From a virus (Duplodnaviria; Heunggongvirae; Uroviricota; Caudoviricetes), in the IMG/VR virus record IMGVR_UViG_3300045988_034843: a DNA stretch of 25,609 nucleotides. One strand, 5' to 3'. Shown here piece by piece: positions 1 to 21,451 of the stretch; the stretch's first letter is position 1, and each line of letters starts with the position of its first letter. The notes beneath the pieces were generated by a model. The model made no database searches, was not told the origin of the DNA, and saw only the letters and a program-made list of their open reading frames with translations. Made by a program: the position numbers and the translations under genes.

Positions 1-899
1 TAGATGACATTGTCATATACAAACGTTTTATCCTGCGTCCAGGCGTTGTACCACGGTGTATCTGTAATTTTAAATAACTCTCCCTGGATAAAATCTTCAG
101 AAGCATAAAAAAGAGGCTGGCCCGGTATTCTCTCAAATAAAAAACGAGCATTTTTAAATCGACTGACATCCGGAAGAGTTGATACTTTAAAAGTAAGCCC
201 TAATCCGTCAATTTTATAACCTGGAGATGAGGCTTCAAGGCACGCGCTTATTGCAGTGGAATCGTCATTTATACCATCACCAACAGCTCCAAAATCTTTG
301 GGGCTAATAGCATCACGCATTTTATCCTGGAACGTTCGGTACACAGCCCCAGAACCATACTGAATAAACCAACCAAAACCACCAACAACTCCGGCGATTG
401 CAGCATCGACATAATTACGCATTGAGCGATTATTTACAGCGTCCTGCTCAAATGATGGATCTGCAAGGTTAGAAATTTTGTTTTGCTTTGCATCGTAATA
501 TTTTGCAAGCAAAGATGGTTTCATCAATGCACGTCTGAACCACCCAAAACATTGCTGGATCAGCATCGTCAGGTAGTCAAAGGCATCTTCATGCACTTCG
601 GGGAAAAATTTTCCCTGATTGCGAAGGTCTGTGTCCTGCACTACATCAAGCACACGATCTATCGTAATTCGCCATCCAGTAGCAAGCGGAGACGGAAGAA
701 CCACAGAACCGCCACTATAAGTGCCCGCCCCAGTTACCGTATAACCGGTATCCAGGACCAATTCTGTTACGTTCCCGTTCAGGTCAGACACCTGAACAAC
801 CAGGTCTGATTTTCTGAAAATTCGAAAAGTATACGGAAACGATGTCGTAACGCCGTTACCGGTGTATTCGTTGTGGTCAACTTCGGTTGAGACCGTCAT
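1..899 (-). CDS. Tailspike / tail fibre, N-terminal ~299 aa only; gene continues past window start
   Basis: ATG at 899 preceded by GGAGA RBS; own translation of minus strand gives MTVSTEVDHNEYTGNGVTTSFPYTFRIF...DLVVQV (pattern like the T7 gp17 N-terminal tail-attachment domain) followed by DFGAVGDGINDDSTAI, a motif typical of pectate-lyase-fold tailspike depolymerases. Not in the ORF track because no stop lies inside the window. Confidence 0.8.
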   Translation of the reverse strand, partial: MTVSTEVDHNEYTGNGVTTSFPYTFRIFRKSDLVVQVSDLNGNVTELVLDTGYTVTGAGTYSGGSVVLPSPLATGWRITIDRVLDVVQDTDLRNQGKFFPEVHEDAFDYLTMLIQQCFGWFRRALMKPSLLAKYYDAKQNKISNLADPSFEQDAVNNRSMRNYVDAAIAGVVGGFGWFIQYGSGAVYRTFQDKMRDAISPKDFGAVGDGINDDSTAISACLEASSPGYKIDGLGLTFKVSTLPDVSRFKNARFLFERIPGQPLFYASEDFIQGELFKITDTPWYNAWTQDKTFVYDNVI

Positions 900-1004
900 G
901 TTAAATCTCCAGATAGTCGCAGCACCCGTTGCGCCGCATATCTGGTTATTCTATTACCTGAAAAACCATATATGGATAAAAAGACTATAAATACCAATAG
1001 ATAT

Positions 1005-1019
1005 TACCTTTCGGGTAAT
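1005..1019. promoter_or_regulatory. Dyad operator-like site TTACC-TTTCG-GGTAA (copy 1 of 6)
   Basis: Exact 5-bp inverted half-sites with 5-bp spacer, flanked A...T; 76 bp upstream of the ATG at 1095. Confidence 0.6.
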
Positions 1020-1055
1020 TTGCAAAACGTGCTGGATAGCAAACAAATTATTTGT

Positions 1056-1075
1056 TACTGTATAAACATACAGTT
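1056..1075. promoter_or_regulatory. LexA (SOS) box TACTGTATAAACATACAGTT
   Basis: CTGT-N8-ACAG with AT-rich spacer, close match to the E. coli LexA consensus TACTGTATATATATACAGTA; contains TATAAA (-10-like); 20 bp upstream of the ATG at 1095. Confidence 0.7.
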
Positions 1076-1094
1076 ATTGCATGGAGAAGATAAG

Positions 1095-1352
1095 ATGCAG
1101 CAGTATCACTATCCACTGGAAGACGGATTTACCGAAAGGATTCACACGCCGGGAGGCGTCAGGTCACTGGTGGAGGGATCGCACTTGATGAAATTACTCC
1201 GGGATCTCGATAAGGATGGATTTAATGTCGATGGCCCACTTGCCGAACTGACTGCACTGATTAACTACGTCACCAGCTCACAGATGTCTATGCAGGATCT
1301 GCAAACACATCTCGACTATTGTGCCGAACAATTACGAAAACAAACCCGGTAA
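1095..1352 (+). CDS. Small (85 aa) protein paralogous to the C-terminal domain of the Ant-like protein at 2503-3159; putative LexA-controlled antirepressor/induction factor
   Basis: Internal ATG of track ORF 972-1352 with GGAGAAG RBS 7 nt upstream; the 972 start would place the LexA box and dyad inside coding sequence; about 50 percent identity by eye to residues ~150-210 of the 218-aa Ant-like protein (IHTPGGV..LMKLL..DG..V.G..AELT...DLQTH). Confidence 0.6.
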   Translation: MQQYHYPLEDGFTERIHTPGGVRSLVEGSHLMKLLRDLDKDGFNVDGPLAELTALINYVTSSQMSMQDLQTHLDYCAEQLRKQTR

Positions 1353-1359
1353 ATTTAAA

Positions 1360-1375
1360 GGCCGCAAGAGCGGCC
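1360..1375. terminator. Hairpin GGCCGC-AAGA-GCGGCC between convergent genes
   Basis: 6-bp GC stem with 4-nt loop directly after the stop at 1352 and overlapping the minus-gene stop at 1375; T-rich on the minus-strand side. Confidence 0.5.
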
Positions 1376-2103
1376 TATCGTTTCGCTTTGTGCTCGTCCC
1401 AGCACGTTTTGCACCATGCCATTAAGCCATCCGCATTTTGATTATTAGGGTAAAAGCTTGTTCGTTTTCTGCGGACATTACAAATTGGGCACCACTTCAT
1501 ATGGCGTGTATTCTTTGGGCCATCGAGACACCTTGCACACCACTTAGTCAATCCATCTGGATTTTTTGACGATTTCCTGAATTTTTCATATGGTAGGTTT
1601 ATTCTGCATCGCAAGCACTGCTTGCTACCACTTGAAACTCTGTTAGCTGATTCTTCTTTTGGCGGCGATACAGAAGGTATTCTTGCTGGCTCTGATACTG
1701 CCTGAGGTGCTTTTTTAGATGACTGAGACGATATGTCATCACCAGGGAATCTTCCATGATATGCCGGACGCGTTGACACTCCAGGTGGAAGCTCAGCTGT
1801 AAACGGCTTTGGCTGAATCAGTTGCCTCTCTTTTGCTAACTCCTGCTGTTTATAATATGTCTGGATTACCGCACTATCATAAGCAGGAGGTGCGGAAATA
1901 TTAGGCGCATTACCTCCAGTTTTTTGAAACTGAGTAGAGGTGTGTTCTATCACCTGTGTACGATTAATCGTTATCTCCCCATCTTCGGTCTTTATCGTTT
2001 TGTTATGATTAACGACCGTACGATCAGAGATCTTAGTCTTGTTCTGGTTGATAACGTAAATAATCACCGCAACCACACCAACAACTATCCAGAAAACTTC
2101 CAT
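1375..2103 (-). CDS. Membrane-anchored protein with tandem C-x2-C-x22-C-x2-C zinc-ribbon-like repeats (242 aa); function unknown
   Basis: Track ORF; N-terminal hydrophobic helix (VFWIVVGVVAVIIYVI); C-terminus has two repeats CLRC...NPDGLTKWCARC and CPIC...NADGLMAWCKTC; GAGGAAAA RBS upstream of ATG at 2103. Confidence 0.7.
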   Translation of the reverse strand: MEVFWIVVGVVAVIIYVINQNKTKISDRTVVNHNKTIKTEDGEITINRTQVIEHTSTQFQKTGGNAPNISAPPAYDSAVIQTYYKQQELAKERQLIQPKPFTAELPPGVSTRPAYHGRFPGDDISSQSSKKAPQAVSEPARIPSVSPPKEESANRVSSGSKQCLRCRINLPYEKFRKSSKNPDGLTKWCARCLDGPKNTRHMKWCPICNVRRKRTSFYPNNQNADGLMAWCKTCWDEHKAKR

Positions 2104-2123
2104 TGCTTTTCCTCACAATAACA

Positions 2124-2138
2124 TTACCTTAAAGGTAA
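2124..2138. promoter_or_regulatory. Dyad operator-like site TTACC-TTAAA-GGTAA (copy 2)
   Basis: Centre 28 bp upstream of the minus-strand ATG at 2103; overlaps a candidate TTGATC-N17-TACCTT promoter on the minus strand. Confidence 0.6.
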
Positions 2139-2216
2139 TATCTTGCTTTCAGGTGATCAAGCGTTAAACGCAATCAACCAAATACGGTTGATTTTAATAT
2201 TTCTTCGCGTTTATCA

Positions 2217-2231
2217 TTACCTTTGCGGTAA
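2217..2231. promoter_or_regulatory. Dyad operator-like site TTACC-TTTGC-GGTAA (copy 3)
   Basis: Same half-sites and spacing; lies in the 400-bp intergenic region between the divergent genes at 2103 and 2503. Confidence 0.55.
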
Positions 2232-2321
2232 ATTTACATTGCACTCCTCTTGTGCCATAGTAATCGGGCACTGGCAAAATCCAGTGCCGGGATTGGTCTC
2301 CCGGATTACTAAGTGGCGCAT

Positions 2322-2344
2322 ACCACGCCAGACGTGGTTTTTTT
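2322..2344 (+). terminator. Rho-independent terminator-like hairpin in the leader upstream of the Ant-like gene
   Basis: ACCACG-CCAGA-CGTGGT stem-loop followed by TTTTTT(T); preceded by two further hairpins at 2267-2288 and 2287-2304. Confidence 0.5.
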
Positions 2345-2502
2345 ATGCGTATAGCACAGTCATGCCAGAATTATGGTGGGCTGAATGGGGGTCCGAAAGG
2401 ACGCCGGTACCACTTAGGCCGGTAAGACCAACTCCGTTCAGTTCACCACCATCTGATTGGTCTCAGCGGTGGTGATGTAATTCGCTAAGTGGAGACGCCA
2501 TC

Positions 2503-3159
2503 ATGAACGCTCAACTCATCCCCGTATTCAACGGCACTATATCTAACGAAACAGCCCTACTTTGTAATGCCCGCGATCTGCACGCTTTTTTAGGTGTTAA
2601 AAAGGTGTTTGCAGCATGGATTACAAATCGCATATCAGAATACGAATTCATTGAAAATCAAGACTATATTTTGCTTTCCAATTTGGGAAAGCAAACATCT
2701 GGTAGAGGCGGCCACAACCGCAAAGAGTACCACCTCACCCTTGATACAGCCAAAGAGCTGGCGATGGTCGAGCGTAACGAAAAAGGTCGCCAGGTGCGAC
2801 GCTACTTCATTGAATGCGAGAAACGTTTAAGACAACAAGAAACAAAAGTGGAGAAGGTCTTGTCAGGCTTCATGCCCGCCATTATGGAGGCGATCAAGCT
2901 GGAAGACAAAAAAGAATACAGCGCCCCACTGAAGCCCGGCTACCGCAGCCTGATTCACTCGCCGTCTGGTGTTCTCGGCCTGACTGAGAACTCACTGCTG
3001 ATGAATCTGCTGAACCAGTTACAGGAAGACGGGCACGATGTATCTGGCGCGGCGGCGGAGCTGACCACCATGTTCTGCTACATCGTTGGTGTGAGCAAAT
3101 GCCTGCGTGATATCCAGACCCACGCGGAGTACATCAACGACAAGGCAGGGTTCTTCTGA
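2503..3159 (+). CDS. Antirepressor-like protein, AntA-type N-terminal domain (218 aa)
   Basis: Track ORF; GGAGA RBS 7 nt upstream; N-terminus IPVFNG...[10 protein letters not shown]...F..W...RI.EYEF.EN.DY resembles the AntA/AntB antirepressor domain as I recall it; C-terminal third is paralogous to the 85-aa protein at 1095-1352. Confidence 0.7.
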
Positions 3160-3244
3160 CGAGCGGCGGCACATGGATGTGCCTACAATTATCAATAATT
3201 GTTTACACTCGTTGCAGTTAAAAGCATTATACTCATGTTTAAAA

Positions 3245-3259
3245 TTACCCGATTGGTAA
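3245..3259. promoter_or_regulatory. Dyad operator-like site TTACC-CGATT-GGTAA (copy 4)
   Basis: Centre 29 bp upstream of ATG 3281, downstream of a TTATACT -10-like element. Confidence 0.6.
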
Positions 3260-3280
3260 AGTCGATTGGTTGAGGTTCAT

Positions 3281-3607
3281 ATGAGCAGAAGATATGTCAA
3301 GGAGCTGGCTATAGAGTCTGGCACCCCTTTGGGTATCGTTCCTGGCTCCAACTATGCCAAGGCTTTAAACCGAGACTCTGTCGTCAAAGTTATATCAAGA
3401 GACATGAATATGGTCGGAGACGATCTCAGACGGTCAGAAAATCGTGTTTATGCTGAATATATAGTAAAGAACGGAAAAAAAATTGCAGCGCCTGCTGGCG
3501 GAAAATGGGCAATAGTGACAGGGAAAAACTCAAATGCAAGAGGAAAACCAGAAGCTAAAGGAATGTCCTTCGACAAATATGCAAAAATCTATTGGGCAAC
3601 CAAGTGA
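3281..3607 (+). CDS. Hypothetical protein (108 aa)
   Basis: ATG 3281 with GAGG 7 nt upstream (track ORF 3266-3607 trimmed to this ATG); AT-rich, lysine-rich; no motif I recognise. Confidence 0.55.
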   Translation: MSRRYVKELAIESGTPLGIVPGSNYAKALNRDSVVKVISRDMNMVGDDLRRSENRVYAEYIVKNGKKIAAPAGGKWAIVTGKNSNARGKPEAKGMSFDKYAKIYWATK

Positions 3608-4082
3608 TAACGAAGAAACTGAGTTCGAGGAAGTTGAGGAAGGGCTAAGTAACGAGATCATTCAACACCCAGATGCCTTCACAAGAGTTCTTGATCGCCC
3701 TGAAATTCAGGAGATAGTTGTCGCTCACCATGCGTTTCAGGGGCCGCTTCCTCCCCCCTATCTGCTTCGCGGGTATCAGGATATTTTACCTGATGCCCCC
3801 GAACGCATCTTCCAGTTGACGGAGAAGGAGTTTGCTCACCGCCAGAAAATGGAGGAAAAGGCACTTGACGGGGCTATTAATAGAGATAAACGTGGGCAGT
3901 GGTTTGGCCTGAGTGCAACTATTTTTACAGTAGCTTGTGCAACATTATTAGGTTTAACAGGTCATGAAGTTCTAGCTGGCACAGTGATCGGTACAGTTGT
4001 TGCAGTGGCTGGTATTTTCGTTCTTAGACAAAAACCAAGCATCAAGAAGAAATCTGAAGACAACAAACCTGAAGAAAAGTAA
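3534..4082 (+). CDS. Membrane protein with two C-terminal TM helices, possibly DUF2335-like (182 aa; alternative start 3579 gives 167 aa)
   Basis: Track ORF; overlaps the 3' end of the previous gene in another frame; conserved-looking stretch PLPPPYLLRGYQDILPDAPERIF...HRQ then hydrophobic segments FGLSATIFTVACATLLGL and VIGTVVAVAGIFVL; followed immediately by a terminator. Confidence 0.6.
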   Translation: MQEENQKLKECPSTNMQKSIGQPSDNEETEFEEVEEGLSNEIIQHPDAFTRVLDRPEIQEIVVAHHAFQGPLPPPYLLRGYQDILPDAPERIFQLTEKEFAHRQKMEEKALDGAINRDKRGQWFGLSATIFTVACATLLGLTGHEVLAGTVIGTVVAVAGIFVLRQKPSIKKKSEDNKPEEK

Positions 4083-4103
4083 GCCCGCGCTGCGGGCTTT
4101 TTT
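4082..4103 (+). terminator. Rho-independent terminator AGCCCGC-GCT-GCGGGCT + T6
   Basis: 7-bp GC-rich stem, 3-nt loop, T-run 4098-4103, directly after the stop at 4080-4082. Confidence 0.75.
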
Positions 4104-4175
4104 GTGGACGAAACAAAAGTCAGTGCTACACTCATTGACGCCACATTGAGGTGGCTTATAGATGGAAATTTCACA

Positions 4176-4337
4176 ATGAAAAAAGCATTTGCTGCACTGT
4201 TCGTTTTGTTGTCTCTGGTAGCTTCAACTCAGGCCTTTGCCGGTCGTTGTCAGCACGACAGCGACACTGCTGCTGACGGCTCCCGCTGCGGTGGGCGTTC
4301 TGCGGATTCCCGCCCGGGTGGCGGTGGCATTCGTTAA
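4176..4337 (+). CDS. Small predicted secreted peptide (53 aa) with N-terminal signal sequence
   Basis: Internal ATG of track ORF 4104-4337; MKKAFAALFVLLSLVASTQAFA looks like a Sec signal peptide with AFA cleavage motif; mature part Cys/Gly/Asp-rich; weak RBS. Confidence 0.4.
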   Translation: MKKAFAALFVLLSLVASTQAFAGRCQHDSDTAADGSRCGGRSADSRPGGGGIR

Positions 4338-4342
4338 AAACA

Positions 4343-4358
4343 AGGCCGCGAAAGCGGC
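4343..4358. terminator. Hairpin GGCCGC-GAAA-GCGGCC shared by convergent genes
   Basis: 6-bp GC stem with GAAA loop; the minus-strand reading is followed by TTGTTTTT, so it most plausibly terminates the minus-strand lipoprotein gene. Confidence 0.55.
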
Positions 4359-4360
4359 CT

Positions 4361-4372
4361 GTGACATGTCAC
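4361..4372. repeat. 12-bp perfect palindrome GTGACATGTCAC (copy 1 of 3)
   Basis: Exact palindrome abutting the hairpin at 4343-4358; overlaps the stop codon of the lipoprotein gene. Confidence 0.6.
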
Positions 4373-4749
4373 GCAACGCAATTATTACCGCGCCATGTAA
4401 CATTTTTAATAATCTTATCAGCACCAAACTCAACGTAAACAGAGCAACTGAAATGGAGTGTATAACCGCCATCAGTTGTTGCGTATGTGTTTGAATATAT
4501 AGTATTACCAATTAGATTAGACGTAGTATTATACGTTGTGGTTTGTGGTACGTTATAACTACCAGAGCTTGAGTAAACATACACTCTGTTTCCATCTGGA
4601 GATGTAAGCTCTCCCTGAGGATACCCCCACTGCTGAACCATTGCGTCTATACTCTGCCCGCGCCACGTAAGCATATTTCTTTCAAACTGTGCAGCTGACT
4701 GGCATCCAACGAGAAGCATAAATCCAAAAATCAAAAATACTTTTCTCAT
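4369..4749 (-). CDS. Putative lipoprotein (126 aa)
   Basis: Internal ATG of track ORF 4369-4785 with AGGGG RBS; MRKVFLIFGFMLLVGCQSA has a lipobox (LVGC); mature part Thr/Ser/Tyr/Asn-rich. Confidence 0.7.
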   Translation of the reverse strand: MRKVFLIFGFMLLVGCQSAAQFERNMLTWRGQSIDAMVQQWGYPQGELTSPDGNRVYVYSSSGSYNVPQTTTYNTTSNLIGNTIYSNTYATTDGGYTLHFSCSVYVEFGADKIIKNVTWRGNNCVA

Positions 4750-4834
4750 AATTACCCCTATCATGGAAAAACAGCACCAATCCACAAATTAACTAGTTAT
4801 TTTATTATTCTTCCGAACAATACAATTCCGAATA

Positions 4835-4960
4835 CTACAAAGCCGAACCATGCCGCTGCACGCAACAGAGATTCCAATTGAAACCCATTTTTATCAAAAT
4901 GTATGAATAGCATAAAAACGCTGCACATATTAGTACAATAAAAGTTATTTGAACCATCAT
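4835..4960 (-). CDS. Small hydrophobic peptide (41 aa), uncertain
   Basis: Own translation: AAGGAG RBS 4 nt before ATGATG at 4960, MMVQITFIVLICAAFLCYSYILIKMGF...; the track lists a different frame (4797-4985) for the same stretch, which lacks an RBS at its internal ATGs; only one of these, or neither, is real. Confidence 0.3.
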   Translation of the reverse strand: MMVQITFIVLICAAFLCYSYILIKMGFNWNLCCVQRHGSAL

Positions 4961-4968
4961 ATCTCCTT

Positions 4969-12306: not shown

Positions 12307-12770
12307 TATTTTCTCTCCATGTGAAATCTGTGGAAATTAAGACCAAGAGCACCATAAGGCGCGGCTTCTTCAAGCCTGAATCCAAGCCAGTGCAGCCATG
12401 CTTTGGCAACATGGTTTCGCTCGTCGACGTAGTTTTCCAGGCGCGGATAAACTGCCAGCATCTGCTGCAATACAGGGCGGCAGTGGCGCAGAAATGTCTT
12501 CTGATATTTTTCAATACGGCTGGTTCCTACCAGCCAGGGCGTACCATTGCCACCGATCATTGACGCCGGAGATACACCAAACATGGTTACCAGTTCTCCG
12601 TTCGCGAACCCTGACCAGGCCATAGTCGCAGTGCGAAGACCAACGCGCAGCGCATCTTCGGTAGTCATCAGCGATACCGCATACAGTTCGTCAATATCAG
12701 CCTGACGAACATCCGGCAAAATCATCTGAAGATGCTCTTCGGTAGCGGGAATAATTTGAACATCGATCAT
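12306..12770 (-). CDS. Internal virion protein A-like, gp13-like by position (154 aa)
   Basis: Track ORF; ATGA overlap with upstream gene; assignment by synteny only. Confidence 0.5.
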   Translation of the reverse strand: MIDVQIIPATEEHLQMILPDVRQADIDELYAVSLMTTEDALRVGLRTATMAWSGFANGELVTMFGVSPASMIGGNGTPWLVGTSRIEKYQKTFLRHCRPVLQQMLAVYPRLENYVDERNHVAKAWLHWLGFRLEEAAPYGALGLNFHRFHMERK

Positions 12771-15241
12771 CAGAATCCCCCAACAGTAAGGCGAGGAATA
12801 ACGGCAAGAACAGACAGCGGCAACGGGTCAAGCTGACGGATTTTTACACGCCCGTTTTTGCCCCAGTTACTGTCCAGTTTCACTTCTACTTTTCCGGTAG
12901 CATCATCAACAGGATCATCGTAGAACTCGAATTCACGCTGTGGATATTCGTGCCATTTACCGCCGGGCGTAGTCGCCCAGATGCCGCGACTGGCATTCAC
13001 AACCAGAGTAACGGACGGGATCACCTGTTTTTTGTCCAGCAGCGTTTCCTGTCCGCTAATGTTGATATCCAGTGTTTCGAATTCAGCAGTTATTGGCAGG
13101 CCGATGTGCACTACAGCCCCCGGAGATTCCAGCGTGACGGCACCTCCGGAAACAACTTTCTGTGGTTCCACGTTCGCATCAGAGAGAATGTTTACGGTCT
13201 GGCCTTCAAGATGAGACAGGCCTCCAAATGTCCGGCGCGCCATCTGCCAGTTCGTGGTGGCCACATTCCTGAGGGATGATGGGACGTTCCTGTTAGGACG
13301 AACCACTACAGCGGTATTGCTGGTTACAGAAATAATGTCGCAACGTAATTCTTTTGACACTTCATCGCCAGTATCAGGATCAGTTCCGGTATAAGGGAAT
13401 TGTAGTTGCGCACCGACATCACTACTGGTGAAGTACGCACCACCAGAAATACTGATTGTATATTCCGCGCGGTAATCCCATTCACCAGAACCACCAGTGA
13501 TGGTCATCGTTCTGTCAGACGTATTTCTTCCATCATAGCTAAGGCCAGAATCAACAAAGAAAGCATCTTCATCGCTGGTAAATAAACGGCTGGACAGTCG
13601 CTCGATGTATCTCACTGTTTGCCCGTTAACGGTTCGGTTAACGACGAAATACACCGCATCTTCATTTCCTTCGCTGATACTGCATGTGCTTTCATATTTT
13701 CCGGTACTGGATTGTGGTGCCCATGCAAAAACCTGCTGATCACGCAAATAGGTCATCACCAGTAATTTACCGTCATCACGAATGCAGAAGGCGCTGGAGT
13801 AAGGGACAATAGAGAAGCACCAGTCAACAATACTGTGCTTCTGAAAAAGATGATTGGCAAGGATGGTCAGGTCGTTCCCCTGATAGCCGTCAACATCGAA
13901 TGAGTAGGCCAGATCACGGACAACACTGCCTTTCTCCTGGACGAACAGAGCAATATTCGCCACGGCAATTGGTGGGACATTGCTCGAGCCATTTGATCCC
14001 TGAGAGCTGAATGCAAATGATGATGGGGTAAGCACTTTGTTCTGGTCGCCAGTGATGACGTACTCACCTCCGGAAGTCAGCGCCACCAGCGAACCAACAT
14101 CAATCAGGTGACGGATCTCATTAACCTGACGCCCGGCATAGGTGTAGATAATTCTGTCGTCATCCTGCGTAGGATTGCTTTTGCCAAAATCCTTATAATC
14201 CCCGGTACGGCTGGCCCAGATAGTCTGAGGAAACGCAGTCGATGCGGCGAAGTAAAGACGTTGTTGATAATAAACAACAGTGCCAGGATAACCATTAACA
14301 CTGTTCCAGGCATATTTAGCCCATTTATAGCTGGCATTATCCTCGCCAACTACCTGCGAAGGGATATAGGAAATCACCTCGGCAGTTGCAGTAGTTCCAT
14401 TTGCAGCAGTGATACGGGCAATGCCAAAACCACTGTGCAGATATTCCCACTCAATGCCAGTATCATCATCACCGGATCCGCCCCAGCCATCCCATGATGT
14501 GCCTTCTGTATGCGAAGGGCGCAAAGTACCTGTTTTGCCTGCTTTAACGGCGCGATAGTAGTTACTGTCTGCTCGGCGAATATCGCCAATCGACGTACTC
14601 TTACTGGTTTCCCATACCGGCACAGAATCCACTGCAGGCTGTTCCAGATAGAACAATTTGCCTACCTGCTCCGCGCCAAAAATAGAGGCGCTTGCCGTTA
14701 GCGTAATTGTCCCGGTGCTGGCGCTGGCATAAACCGTCACTGACTCGTCAATATTGATATCTTCAAATGGCCCGTTCTTCGTTACCACATCAACCAGTTG
14801 CCAGTTGTCATGCGCATAGCGGCGCAACTCTTTCGGCGGGTATGCCGGATGAACCAGCGTAAGCACGTCTGCGCTTTGCGTGAATTTAATTCGGAACAGA
14901 TCGGCTTCAGTATATGGCGTGGAAATTTCATAAATAACATTGCTGCTGTTCAGCACCAACGCACCATCTTTGATAACGCGCATGTACTGGTGTCCGAACT
15001 CCAGAGCATAAGTCTGAACCGTCGAGAACTGGAACGGGATCAGGCGGCATTTCCGATTTGGATATTTGGCGGCACCGACAAAACGCGTACCAGGTCGATT
15101 CTCAACGCCGCCATACTGCCGCACGATAAAGTTATCGCACTTGCGCAATGCCACCTGGTACTTCGCCATGTCGATACGTCCGTACAACGACGGTCCAATC
15201 TCACCACCAGCAAAGCTGGGCTGGATCCAACTGATAGCCAT
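12770..15241 (-). CDS. Tail tubular protein B-like (nozzle), gp12-like (823 aa)
   Basis: Track ORF; size and position immediately after the gp11-like gene; ATGA overlap. Confidence 0.55.
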   Translation of the reverse strand: MAISWIQPSFAGGEIGPSLYGRIDMAKYQVALRKCDNFIVRQYGGVENRPGTRFVGAAKYPNRKCRLIPFQFSTVQTYALEFGHQYMRVIKDGALVLNSSNVIYEISTPYTEADLFRIKFTQSADVLTLVHPAYPPKELRRYAHDNWQLVDVVTKNGPFEDINIDESVTVYASASTGTITLTASASIFGAEQVGKLFYLEQPAVDSVPVWETSKSTSIGDIRRADSNYYRAVKAGKTGTLRPSHTEGTSWDGWGGSGDDDTGIEWEYLHSGFGIARITAANGTTATAEVISYIPSQVVGEDNASYKWAKYAWNSVNGYPGTVVYYQQRLYFAASTAFPQTIWASRTGDYKDFGKSNPTQDDDRIIYTYAGRQVNEIRHLIDVGSLVALTSGGEYVITGDQNKVLTPSSFAFSSQGSNGSSNVPPIAVANIALFVQEKGSVVRDLAYSFDVDGYQGNDLTILANHLFQKHSIVDWCFSIVPYSSAFCIRDDGKLLVMTYLRDQQVFAWAPQSSTGKYESTCSISEGNEDAVYFVVNRTVNGQTVRYIERLSSRLFTSDEDAFFVDSGLSYDGRNTSDRTMTITGGSGEWDYRAEYTISISGGAYFTSSDVGAQLQFPYTGTDPDTGDEVSKELRCDIISVTSNTAVVVRPNRNVPSSLRNVATTNWQMARRTFGGLSHLEGQTVNILSDANVEPQKVVSGGAVTLESPGAVVHIGLPITAEFETLDINISGQETLLDKKQVIPSVTLVVNASRGIWATTPGGKWHEYPQREFEFYDDPVDDATGKVEVKLDSNWGKNGRVKIRQLDPLPLSVLAVIPRLTVGGF

Positions 15242-21374: not shown

Positions 21375-21451
21375 GTGGCATTAGCTCAGTTGGACAGAGC
21401 AACCGCCTTCTAAGCGGTTGGTCGCAGGTTCGAATCCTGCATGCCACGCCA
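21375..21451 (+). tRNA. tRNA-Arg (anticodon UCU), 77 nt with encoded CCA
   Basis: Hand-folded cloverleaf: acceptor GTGGCAT/ATGCCAC, D-arm GCTC-AGTTGGACA-GAGC, anticodon stem ACCGC/GCGGT with loop CTTCTAA, T-arm GCAGG-TTCGAAT-CCTGC, discriminator G, CCA; close to but not identical with E. coli argU as I recall it. Confidence 0.85.

Follow-up and report, generated by a model that had tools for sequence, protein, structure and literature searches.

A Uetakevirus tailspike fragment predicted to carry a GH58 endosialidase head, and not a pectate-lyase-type beta-helix, behind a T7 gp17-type anchor

Modular exchange is established for tailspikes that carry an endosialidase: the review PMC5380687, citing Stummeyer 2006, describes how an endosialidase is joined to the head-binding domain of P22 in phage CUS-3 and to the fibre N-terminus of T7 in phage K1F. 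An anchor of the T7 type, a beta-propeller of family GH58 and its beta-barrel, a stalk built as a triple beta-helix and a chaperone that is cleaved make up the K1F enzyme endoNF (PDB entries 1V0E, 3GVJ-L, 3JU4 and 3GW6). Its catalytic residues are H350, R549, E581, R596 and R647 (PMC12632334), and this numbering was cross-checked by the H350A and R647A substitutions that are visible in 3GVK and 3GVJ. CUS-3 is a temperate, P22-like prophage of the E. coli K1 strain RS218, and the GenBank record of its endosialidase gene siaK1 (ABQ88383.1) cites direct assay evidence for the enzyme (PMID 16689790). The closest described system is the plaque-forming phage vB_EcoP_ZX5, whose ORF7 (QTH80017.1; gene of 3120 nt, protein of 1039 aa) is presented in the original report (Pathogens 2022, PMC9782041) as an endosialidase joined to a T7-like N-terminus of a tail fibre and to an intramolecular chaperone.

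The DNA under study, hereafter called the window, is a stretch of 25,609 nucleotides from the virus record IMGVR_UViG_3300045988_034843. The phages phiv142-3, phiV10, ZX5 and PAS61 match between 80 and 86% of the window with 97-98% identity, and at the level of nucleotide sequence its source is a phiV10/epsilon15-like temperate podovirus of the genus Uetakevirus, probably residing as a prophage in an E. coli K1 strain. The window comprises the structural half of the genome, with genes encoding the terminase, the portal, the protease, the major capsid protein, the adaptor, the nozzle and the internal virion or ejection proteins. At its left end, positions 1 to 899 on the minus strand very probably specify the first 299 residues of a single tailspike, in which an anchor of the gp17 type is followed by a joint and by the GH58 head of an endosialidase directed against the K1 capsule. 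Since ZX5 ORF7 was published in 2022 (PMC9782041) and RefSeq names the gene an endosialidase, the enzyme itself is already known, and the value of the present analysis is the correction of a fold assignment made in a preliminary description of the locus.

The comparison with the described systems revealed a graded set of similarities. ZX5, likewise a Uetakevirus, shares its genome backbone with the window and differs by one substitution (D89E) in the first 299 residues of the tailspike; it matches the window at positions 1-1352 and from about position 2884, whereas the region in between matches weakly, with different accessory genes, and its anti-repressor comprises 232 aa instead of the 218 aa found in the window. 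CUS-3 shares the endosialidase cassette and the temperate lifestyle in K1 strains, whereas it is anchored through a head-binding domain of the P22 type (PF09008) and not through a gp17-type domain. K1F follows the same concept as the window protein, with the difference that K1F is a lytic T7-like phage with a true member of the T7 gp17 family as anchor, whereas the anchor in the window belongs to the distantly related Uetakevirus/Carin-1 type. The sibling Uetakevirus phiv142-3 encodes a tail fibre, Orf6 (QGF19612.1, 709 aa), whose anchor and linker are identical to those of the window protein as far as about residue 194 (98.3% nucleotide identity, to nt 582 of the gene). The Cobetia marina phage Carin-1 (8CK1) provides the best solved template for the anchor, the nozzle and the adaptor, all of them present in one cryo-EM complex, and differs from the window in its distal depolymerase Dpo31/Dpo36, its marine host and the lack of an endosialidase.

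The tailspike gene occupies positions 1..899 of the minus strand, a strand assignment that had been absent from the preliminary description, and consists of 299 open codons that extend from the ATG start codon (positions 899-897) to the edge of the window, where the gene runs off at position 1. The start codon assignment is regarded as correct because all proteins in an alignment of 24 homologues begin with the N-terminus MTVSTE. A Shine-Dalgarno sequence GGAG can be read directly at positions 907..910 of the minus strand, 7 nt upstream of the ATG, and a promoter scan of positions 900-1094 on this strand detected no sigma-70-like promoter. The plus-strand open reading frames 483-809 and 862-990 overlap the tailspike gene and were treated as shadows of its frame. 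About 29% of the roughly 1039 codons lie within the window, in agreement with the earlier statement that most of the gene lies outside, and about 740 codons extend beyond the edge. The PHROG tail families 13893/1171 match the translated fragment with E-values of 2.6e-199 and 6.9e-151, values that at the sequence level far exceed chance. The proposed role as a tailspike or receptor-binding protein is supported. The reading of the open frame and of its motif was equally correct, as the sequence DFGAVGDGINDDSTAI is literally found at residues 202-217, corresponding to window positions 249-296 on the minus strand.

The N-terminal part of the fragment, residues 1-165 (positions 405..899, minus strand), forms the virion anchor of the T7 gp17 type, and the alignment of 24 homologues shows conservation up to about residue 165, with the families diverging afterwards; this homologue set is shallow, as all members are at least 50% identical. 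In the anchor, a beta-sandwich formed by aa 6-85 leads into a helix, and the motif NL.DP..xxDA..xxYV closes the domain. Its identity to phiv142-3 is about 100%, whereas epsilon15-type Salmonella phages share about 74% of its nucleotides. The preliminary description had expected an anchor of approximately 100 aa followed by the motif: both elements are present, whereas the anchor proved to be about 165 aa long and is separated from the motif by a linker of about 30 aa, so that the motif appears only after some 200 residues.

The relationship of this anchor with T7 gp17 was assessed at the levels of sequence and fold and is more evident from the fold. The tail fibre of Carin-1 (PDB 8CK1/28lx) matches residues 1-183 with an E-value of 5e-32 and shows 47% identity in Foldseek. 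A Foldseek search with an AF2 model of residues 1-204 likewise placed Carin-1 chain 8CK1_B first (1.6e-11) and recovered the T7 entries 8DSP (1.1e-5), 7EY9 (1.5e-4) and the gp17 N-terminus 7BOZ (2.3e-4), all T7 matches with a probability of 1.00 and TM-scores of 0.3-0.5, along with the podovirus fibres 8VBX, 7Y1C and 8I4M and those of PhiM1, LME-1 and Kp9. As the model has a mean pLDDT of 64.7 and is confident at residues 6-85 only, the TM-scores and rmsd values are poor, and only the ranking and the E-values of the fold search were used. Sequence similarity to gp17 is distant: hhalign aligned residues 12-160 collinearly with residues 11-154 of gp17 over 126 columns at 26% identity with an E-value of 0.005 and a probability of only 7%, and BLASTP yielded a 22-aa match with an E-value of 0.046 that is too weak on its own. 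The Pfam family PF03906 (Phage_T7_tail) stayed below its gathering cut-off, with 14.2 bits versus 25.2 bits and a match confined to aa 135-161, and a profile of the 24 sequences searched against the PDB sequences reached the podovirus fibres 9M4C/D, 8VBX, 23SH and 8I4M and did not reach T7 gp17. The proposed T7 fibre-type anchor is accepted as a statement on fold and function and not as membership in PF03906.

Two presumed docking partners of the anchor are encoded on the minus strand of the window. The product of positions 12770..15241 matches the tail nozzle of Carin-1 (8CK1_A 'Tail Nozzle', E = 5e-217) and the tail protein family PHROG 376, and that of positions 15241..15849 matches the adaptor (8CK1_E 'Connector Protein', E = 3.9e-26) and the tail protein family PHROG 394. 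The titles of the PDB entries and the analogy with T7 suggest that the anchor would dock where the adaptor and the nozzle meet.

The part of the fragment that follows the motif had been described as the beginning of a right-handed beta-helix of the pectate-lyase fold, with the motif as the first coil of a pectate-lyase or GH28-like depolymerase. A profile and structure search of the kind recommended in the preliminary description instead assigned these residues to endosialidase families and to the crystal structures of the K1F endosialidase. Residues 205-271 (positions 87..287, minus strand) represent the N-terminal extension domain of endosialidases, as the Pfam family PF12218 (End_N_terminal) is matched over all of its profile positions (1-67 of 67) with an E-value of 1.1e-32 and 112 bits versus a gathering cut-off of 26.3. 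Residues 272-299 (positions 3..86, minus strand) are the start of the catalytic six-bladed beta-propeller, the remainder of which lies outside the window; PF12217 (End_beta_propel) is matched over the first 28 of its 367 profile positions with an E-value of 1.6e-11 and 44.2 bits versus a cut-off of 24. In the PDB search, residues 205-299 aligned without gaps over 95 residues with endoNF of K1F (3GVJ/1V0E, E of about 4e-38), and the phi92 endosialidase 4HIZ matched the same residues with an E-value of 3.9e-36. At the nucleotide level, window positions 1-201 are 98.5% identical to siaK1 of CUS-3. Because the Pfam and PDB alignments cover the residues that follow the motif, this part of the sequence is identified as the endosialidase head (GH58), so that by sequence the enzyme in the window is already of this type and not a right-handed beta-helix.

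The signals that point to a beta-helix are confined to the motif or come from database names and a sibling phage. PF12708 matches aa 201-221 with an E-value of 0.0045, the beta-helix tailspikes of Sf6, CBA120 (TSP3) and phi29 (gp12) match the motif region alone with E-values between 0.01 and 0.4, and database fragments of the protein bear a GH28-related name. Moreover, phiv142-3 Orf6 shares the anchor, has the similar motif DFGAKGDGITDDTVAI after the linker and, unlike the window protein, continues with a genuine PF12708 beta-helix (45 bits). The architecture of Orf6 is the one that the preliminary description had expected in the window. Against these signals, the PF12708 match of the window protein reaches 17.2 bits versus a cut-off of 27 and spans 21 residues only, whereas residues 218-299 match the endosialidase families with the 112 and 44 bits given above and without gaps relative to endoNF; the window departs from phiv142-3 exactly at the motif; and every full-length gene that shares residues 1-299 encodes an endosialidase. 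The beta-helix reading was therefore rejected as effectively refuted by the Pfam, PDB and phiv142-3 comparisons and is regarded as extremely improbable. Of the predicted capsule- or O-antigen-specific depolymerase, the capsule-specific enzyme is supported, whereas the pectate-lyase-fold glycanase is not.

The composition of the region between anchor and head explains how the two folds could be confused. The linker AAIAGVVGGFGWFIQYGSGAVYRTFQDKMRD at residues 166-195 (positions 315..404, minus strand) is common to only a subset of the anchors and about 100% identical to phiv142-3. It is followed at residues 196-232 (positions 204..314, minus strand) by a recombination joint that contains the motif DFGAVGDGINDDSTAI and has diverged from both 'parents'. 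Counted in steps of 30 nt along the gene, the identity to phiv142-3 amounts to 27-30 of 30 positions up to nt 570 and then drops to 12-20 of 30, whereas an identity to CUS-3 of 26-30 of 30 positions is reached only from nt 691. The joint is about 50-70% identical to either 'parent', whereas its flanks are 98-100% identical. At the protein level, ZX5 ORF7 and the CUS-3 protein share 95.6% identity over 845 aa; the value is 98-100% from aa 243 onwards and only about 52% in the joint at aa 193-242. As judged from these alignments, the motif sits in the seam between two modules at residues of about 195-232, and the low identity of the joint beside its conserved flanks may point to either a third donor or accelerated sequence change at the seam.

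The motif is common to both enzyme classes and therefore cannot tell them apart. Orf6 of phiv142-3 gives a weak End_N_terminal match over its motif, which mirrors the weak PF12708 match of the window protein. Truncated database fragments of the window protein are pre-labelled with PF12708, and one of them (P0001) is named 'glycosyl hydrolase family 28-related'; these entries are mislabelled because of the motif shared by the two enzyme types, and the label is the same mistake as the beta-helix reading. The error of the preliminary description is understandable in view of this shared motif and of the automatic GH28-related naming of the database fragments.

The continuation of the gene beyond the window was deduced from near-identical relatives. 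The 899 nt are carried at 99.6-99.7% identity by three phage records, and the closest loci at the nucleotide level show 99.0-99.7% identity, none of the loci compared reaching 100%; ZX5 is 99.7% identical over the 899 nt, and the L007 locus, which was reached via the neighbouring 242-aa protein, is 99.0% identical. With respect to the protein, 299 of the 299 residues are identical in the E. coli SY033 prophage protein, 298 in ZX5 and L007, and 296 in L010. The SY033 prophage adjoins yfgI, with lysis genes downstream of the tailspike, and in L007 and L010 the 1039-aa gene is located beside the same neighbouring genes. In all of the listed matches to complete E. coli genomes that carry this region, the RefSeq name is 'endosialidase catalytic beta-propeller domain-containing protein'. 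The Pfam domains of ZX5 ORF7 are arranged in the order End_N_terminal, beta-propeller (772 bits), beta-barrel, End_tail_spike and Peptidase_S74, and the beta-barrel (PF12195), the stalk (PF12219) and the chaperone (PF13884) of the relatives score 155.7, 260.4 and 41.4 bits, respectively; the beta-propeller domain also occurs in L007 and L010. ORF7 aligns with endoNF at 1047 bits and with the stalk-chaperone structure 3GW6 at an E-value of 1.3e-93; PF12708 scores 14.3 bits in the full-length relative.

H309, R515, E547, R562 and R613, the equivalents of the catalytic residues, were retained by all four full-length proteins (ZX5, SY033, L007 and L010) together with the chaperone-cleavage residue Ser877, and all of these catalytic positions lie beyond codon 299 of the gene, outside the window. 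The preliminary description had named the lack of 'a beta-helix or enzymatic domain' in the full-length protein as its refutation; the full-length relatives do contain an enzymatic domain, and their sole beta-helix is the stalk of the trimer, a triple beta-helix distinct from the catalytic fold.

Because about 740 codons, including those for all catalytic residues, are located outside the window, it was considered whether this copy might be a remnant or a further chimera that is truncated, frame-shifted or equipped with a different stalk or C-terminus beyond residue 299 and that specifies no working endosialidase. The slot for the tailspike shows strong mosaicism, as at least five different tailspikes occur next to the 242-aa protein and its neighbouring genes in E. 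coli prophages, including the endosialidase, two types of GDSL esterases and proteins of 803 aa and of 820 aa, the latter with a Peptidase_S74 domain. In addition, the C-terminal 45 residues of the ZX5 protein are only 82% identical to CUS-3. Such a defect is nevertheless very improbable, since the four relatives that share 296-299 of the 299 residues are all intact, with a length of 1039 aa and mutual identities of 99.4-99.9%, the remainder of the window forms an intact structural module with 97-98% identity to viable phages, and ZX5 is reported to form plaques (PMC9782041). The same endosialidase continuation is expected for this copy beyond the edge of the window.

The specificity of this predicted endosialidase was evaluated in the same manner. 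A natural target other than the plain K1 capsule, for instance the K92 polymer with alternating alpha-2,8/2,9 linkages or an O-acetylated form, would be compatible with the membership of the phi92 endosialidase in the same family, with the 7-residue insertion FVDGSTP that distinguishes the propeller region of ZX5 from that of endoNF, and with the available text of PMC9782041, which yielded no capsule type for YO1, the host of ZX5. Such a target is very improbable, as from aa 243 onwards the protein shares 98-100% identity with the enzyme of CUS-3, which derives from the K1 strain RS218, and the top phage matches have K1 hosts. Furthermore, at least 80% of window positions 1-2500 is present in each of 60 complete E. 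coli genomes, and these lysogens include strains named O2:K1:H7 and O2:K1:H5. An activity specific for K1 is thus predicted by analogy.

According to the proposed model, the tailspike would be a chimera of three parts, i.e. the anchor at residues 1-165, a linker and joint with the DFGAxGDGxxDD motif, and the GH58 head from residue 205 onwards. The trimer of the anchor would plug into the adaptor-nozzle junction, and the rest of the propeller, the inserted beta-barrel, the triple-beta-helix stalk and a self-cleaving C-terminal chaperone would follow outside the window. The chaperone would aid trimerisation and then be cleaved at the conserved Ser. In the mature spike, the beta-propeller is expected to cut alpha-2,8-polysialic acid, with sites on the beta-barrel and the stalk holding the polymer, and the enzyme on the virion would bind and cut the K1 capsule, so that the phage could tunnel to the outer membrane.

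The use of endosialidases as enzybiotic and diagnostic reagents is established, and the enzybiotic interest once ascribed to the locus holds for the class, whereas the literature and RefSeq already contain a near-identical gene. Apart from its anchor, the enzyme is essentially that of CUS-3. With respect to methods, the occurrence of DFGAxGDGxxDD alone is no proof of a beta-helix enzyme. The tailspike sets the host range, which here would comprise K1-encapsulated E. coli, including neonatal-meningitis, urinary-tract and avian pathogenic strains. It is tentatively proposed, with more doubt than confidence, that the joint of roughly 40 residues at aa ~195-232 with its DFGAxGDGxxDD motif is a portable recombination adaptor that serves two unrelated catalytic folds, namely the beta-helix of a single chain and the beta-propeller head of the endosialidase; the proposal is plausible and close to existing ideas on tailspike modularity. 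If this were true, the motif would be a practical splice point for the engineering of tailspikes, and crossovers inside it would provide Uetakevirus prophages with a route between O-antigen and capsule specificities.

Between the tailspike gene (window 1-899, minus strand) and the remainder of the structural operon on that strand lie accessory genes spanning about 4 kb (window 900-4968), most of them encoded on the plus strand. A consensus scan of the 195-nt upstream region of the tailspike gene (window 900-1094) yielded no sigma-70-like promoter on the tailspike (minus) strand. The gene of a 242-aa protein (window 1375-2103, minus strand; PHROG 6762) always adjoins the variable tailspike slot, and a hairpin at window 1359-1376 separates this gene from a convergent 85-aa open reading frame. 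The 242-aa protein has a hydrophobic N-terminus and a C-terminus with two CxxC...WCxxC repeats that match endonuclease VII and Lar-like families in their zinc-binding parts. It is very widespread, with copies listed in 3837 index blocks.

The variation of cassettes in the tailspike slot was apparent from the E. coli prophage loci L007-L012, which represent prophages that are alike outside this slot. From position about 7205 of these loci, the slot adjoining the genes of the 242-aa and 85-aa proteins is occupied by differing cassettes, encoding a 1039-aa endosialidase, GDSL-esterase types of 914 aa and 868 aa, an 803-aa protein, and a protein of 820 aa that contains a Peptidase_S74 domain. The cassettes diverge from the window tailspike protein at differing points, namely at about aa 37, 149 and 204.

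The public protein fragments P0001, P0003, P0005 and P0006 were identified as pieces of the window tailspike or of close variants that are cut by contig ends. These fragments were pre-assigned to PF12708, and P0001 carries the name 'glycosyl hydrolase family 28-related'. Beyond the DFGAxGDGxxDD motif (tailspike aa 202-217), which is common to beta-helix and endosialidase tailspikes, at least P0001 follows the variant of the sibling Uetakevirus phiv142-3, while other fragments are too short for a distinction. Motif-only annotation of truncated tailspikes is unreliable.

A tRNA-Arg(TCT) gene is located at window 21375-21451 on the plus strand, opposite to the structural genes, and accounts for the 64 unexpected Synechococcus-phage matches in the whole-window search. 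The corresponding region carries a 'hypothetical protein' feature in the records of phiV10 and of the Escherichia phage vB_EcoP_ZX5 (ZX5).

With respect to regulation, Rfam matches to isrK (67.7 bits; window 2268-2344) and to the C4 antisense RNA (61.2 bits; window 2369-2453), both on the plus strand, are located directly upstream of an anti-repressor gene (window 2503-3159). This arrangement is a c4-ant control module of the P1/P7/P22 immI type in a Uetakevirus. Moreover, the 85-aa open reading frame (window 1095-1352, plus strand) matches anti-repressor PHROGs, and its product shares 42% identity with the C-terminal region of the Ant protein encoded in the window (Ant aa 137-210). The LexA-box-like palindrome TACTGTATAAACATACAGTT is located 19 nt upstream (window 1056-1075) and deviates from the LexA-box consensus at three positions; none of 100 shuffled sequences contained any match. 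The box is kept at the equivalent position in ZX5, phiv142-3, Phi05_1387 B and E. coli SY033, which contains a related prophage; the ZX5 paper (PMC9782041) makes no mention of LexA. The 85-aa open reading frame and its box look like a small antirepressor under SOS control, of the type of 186 Tum or of Gifsy.
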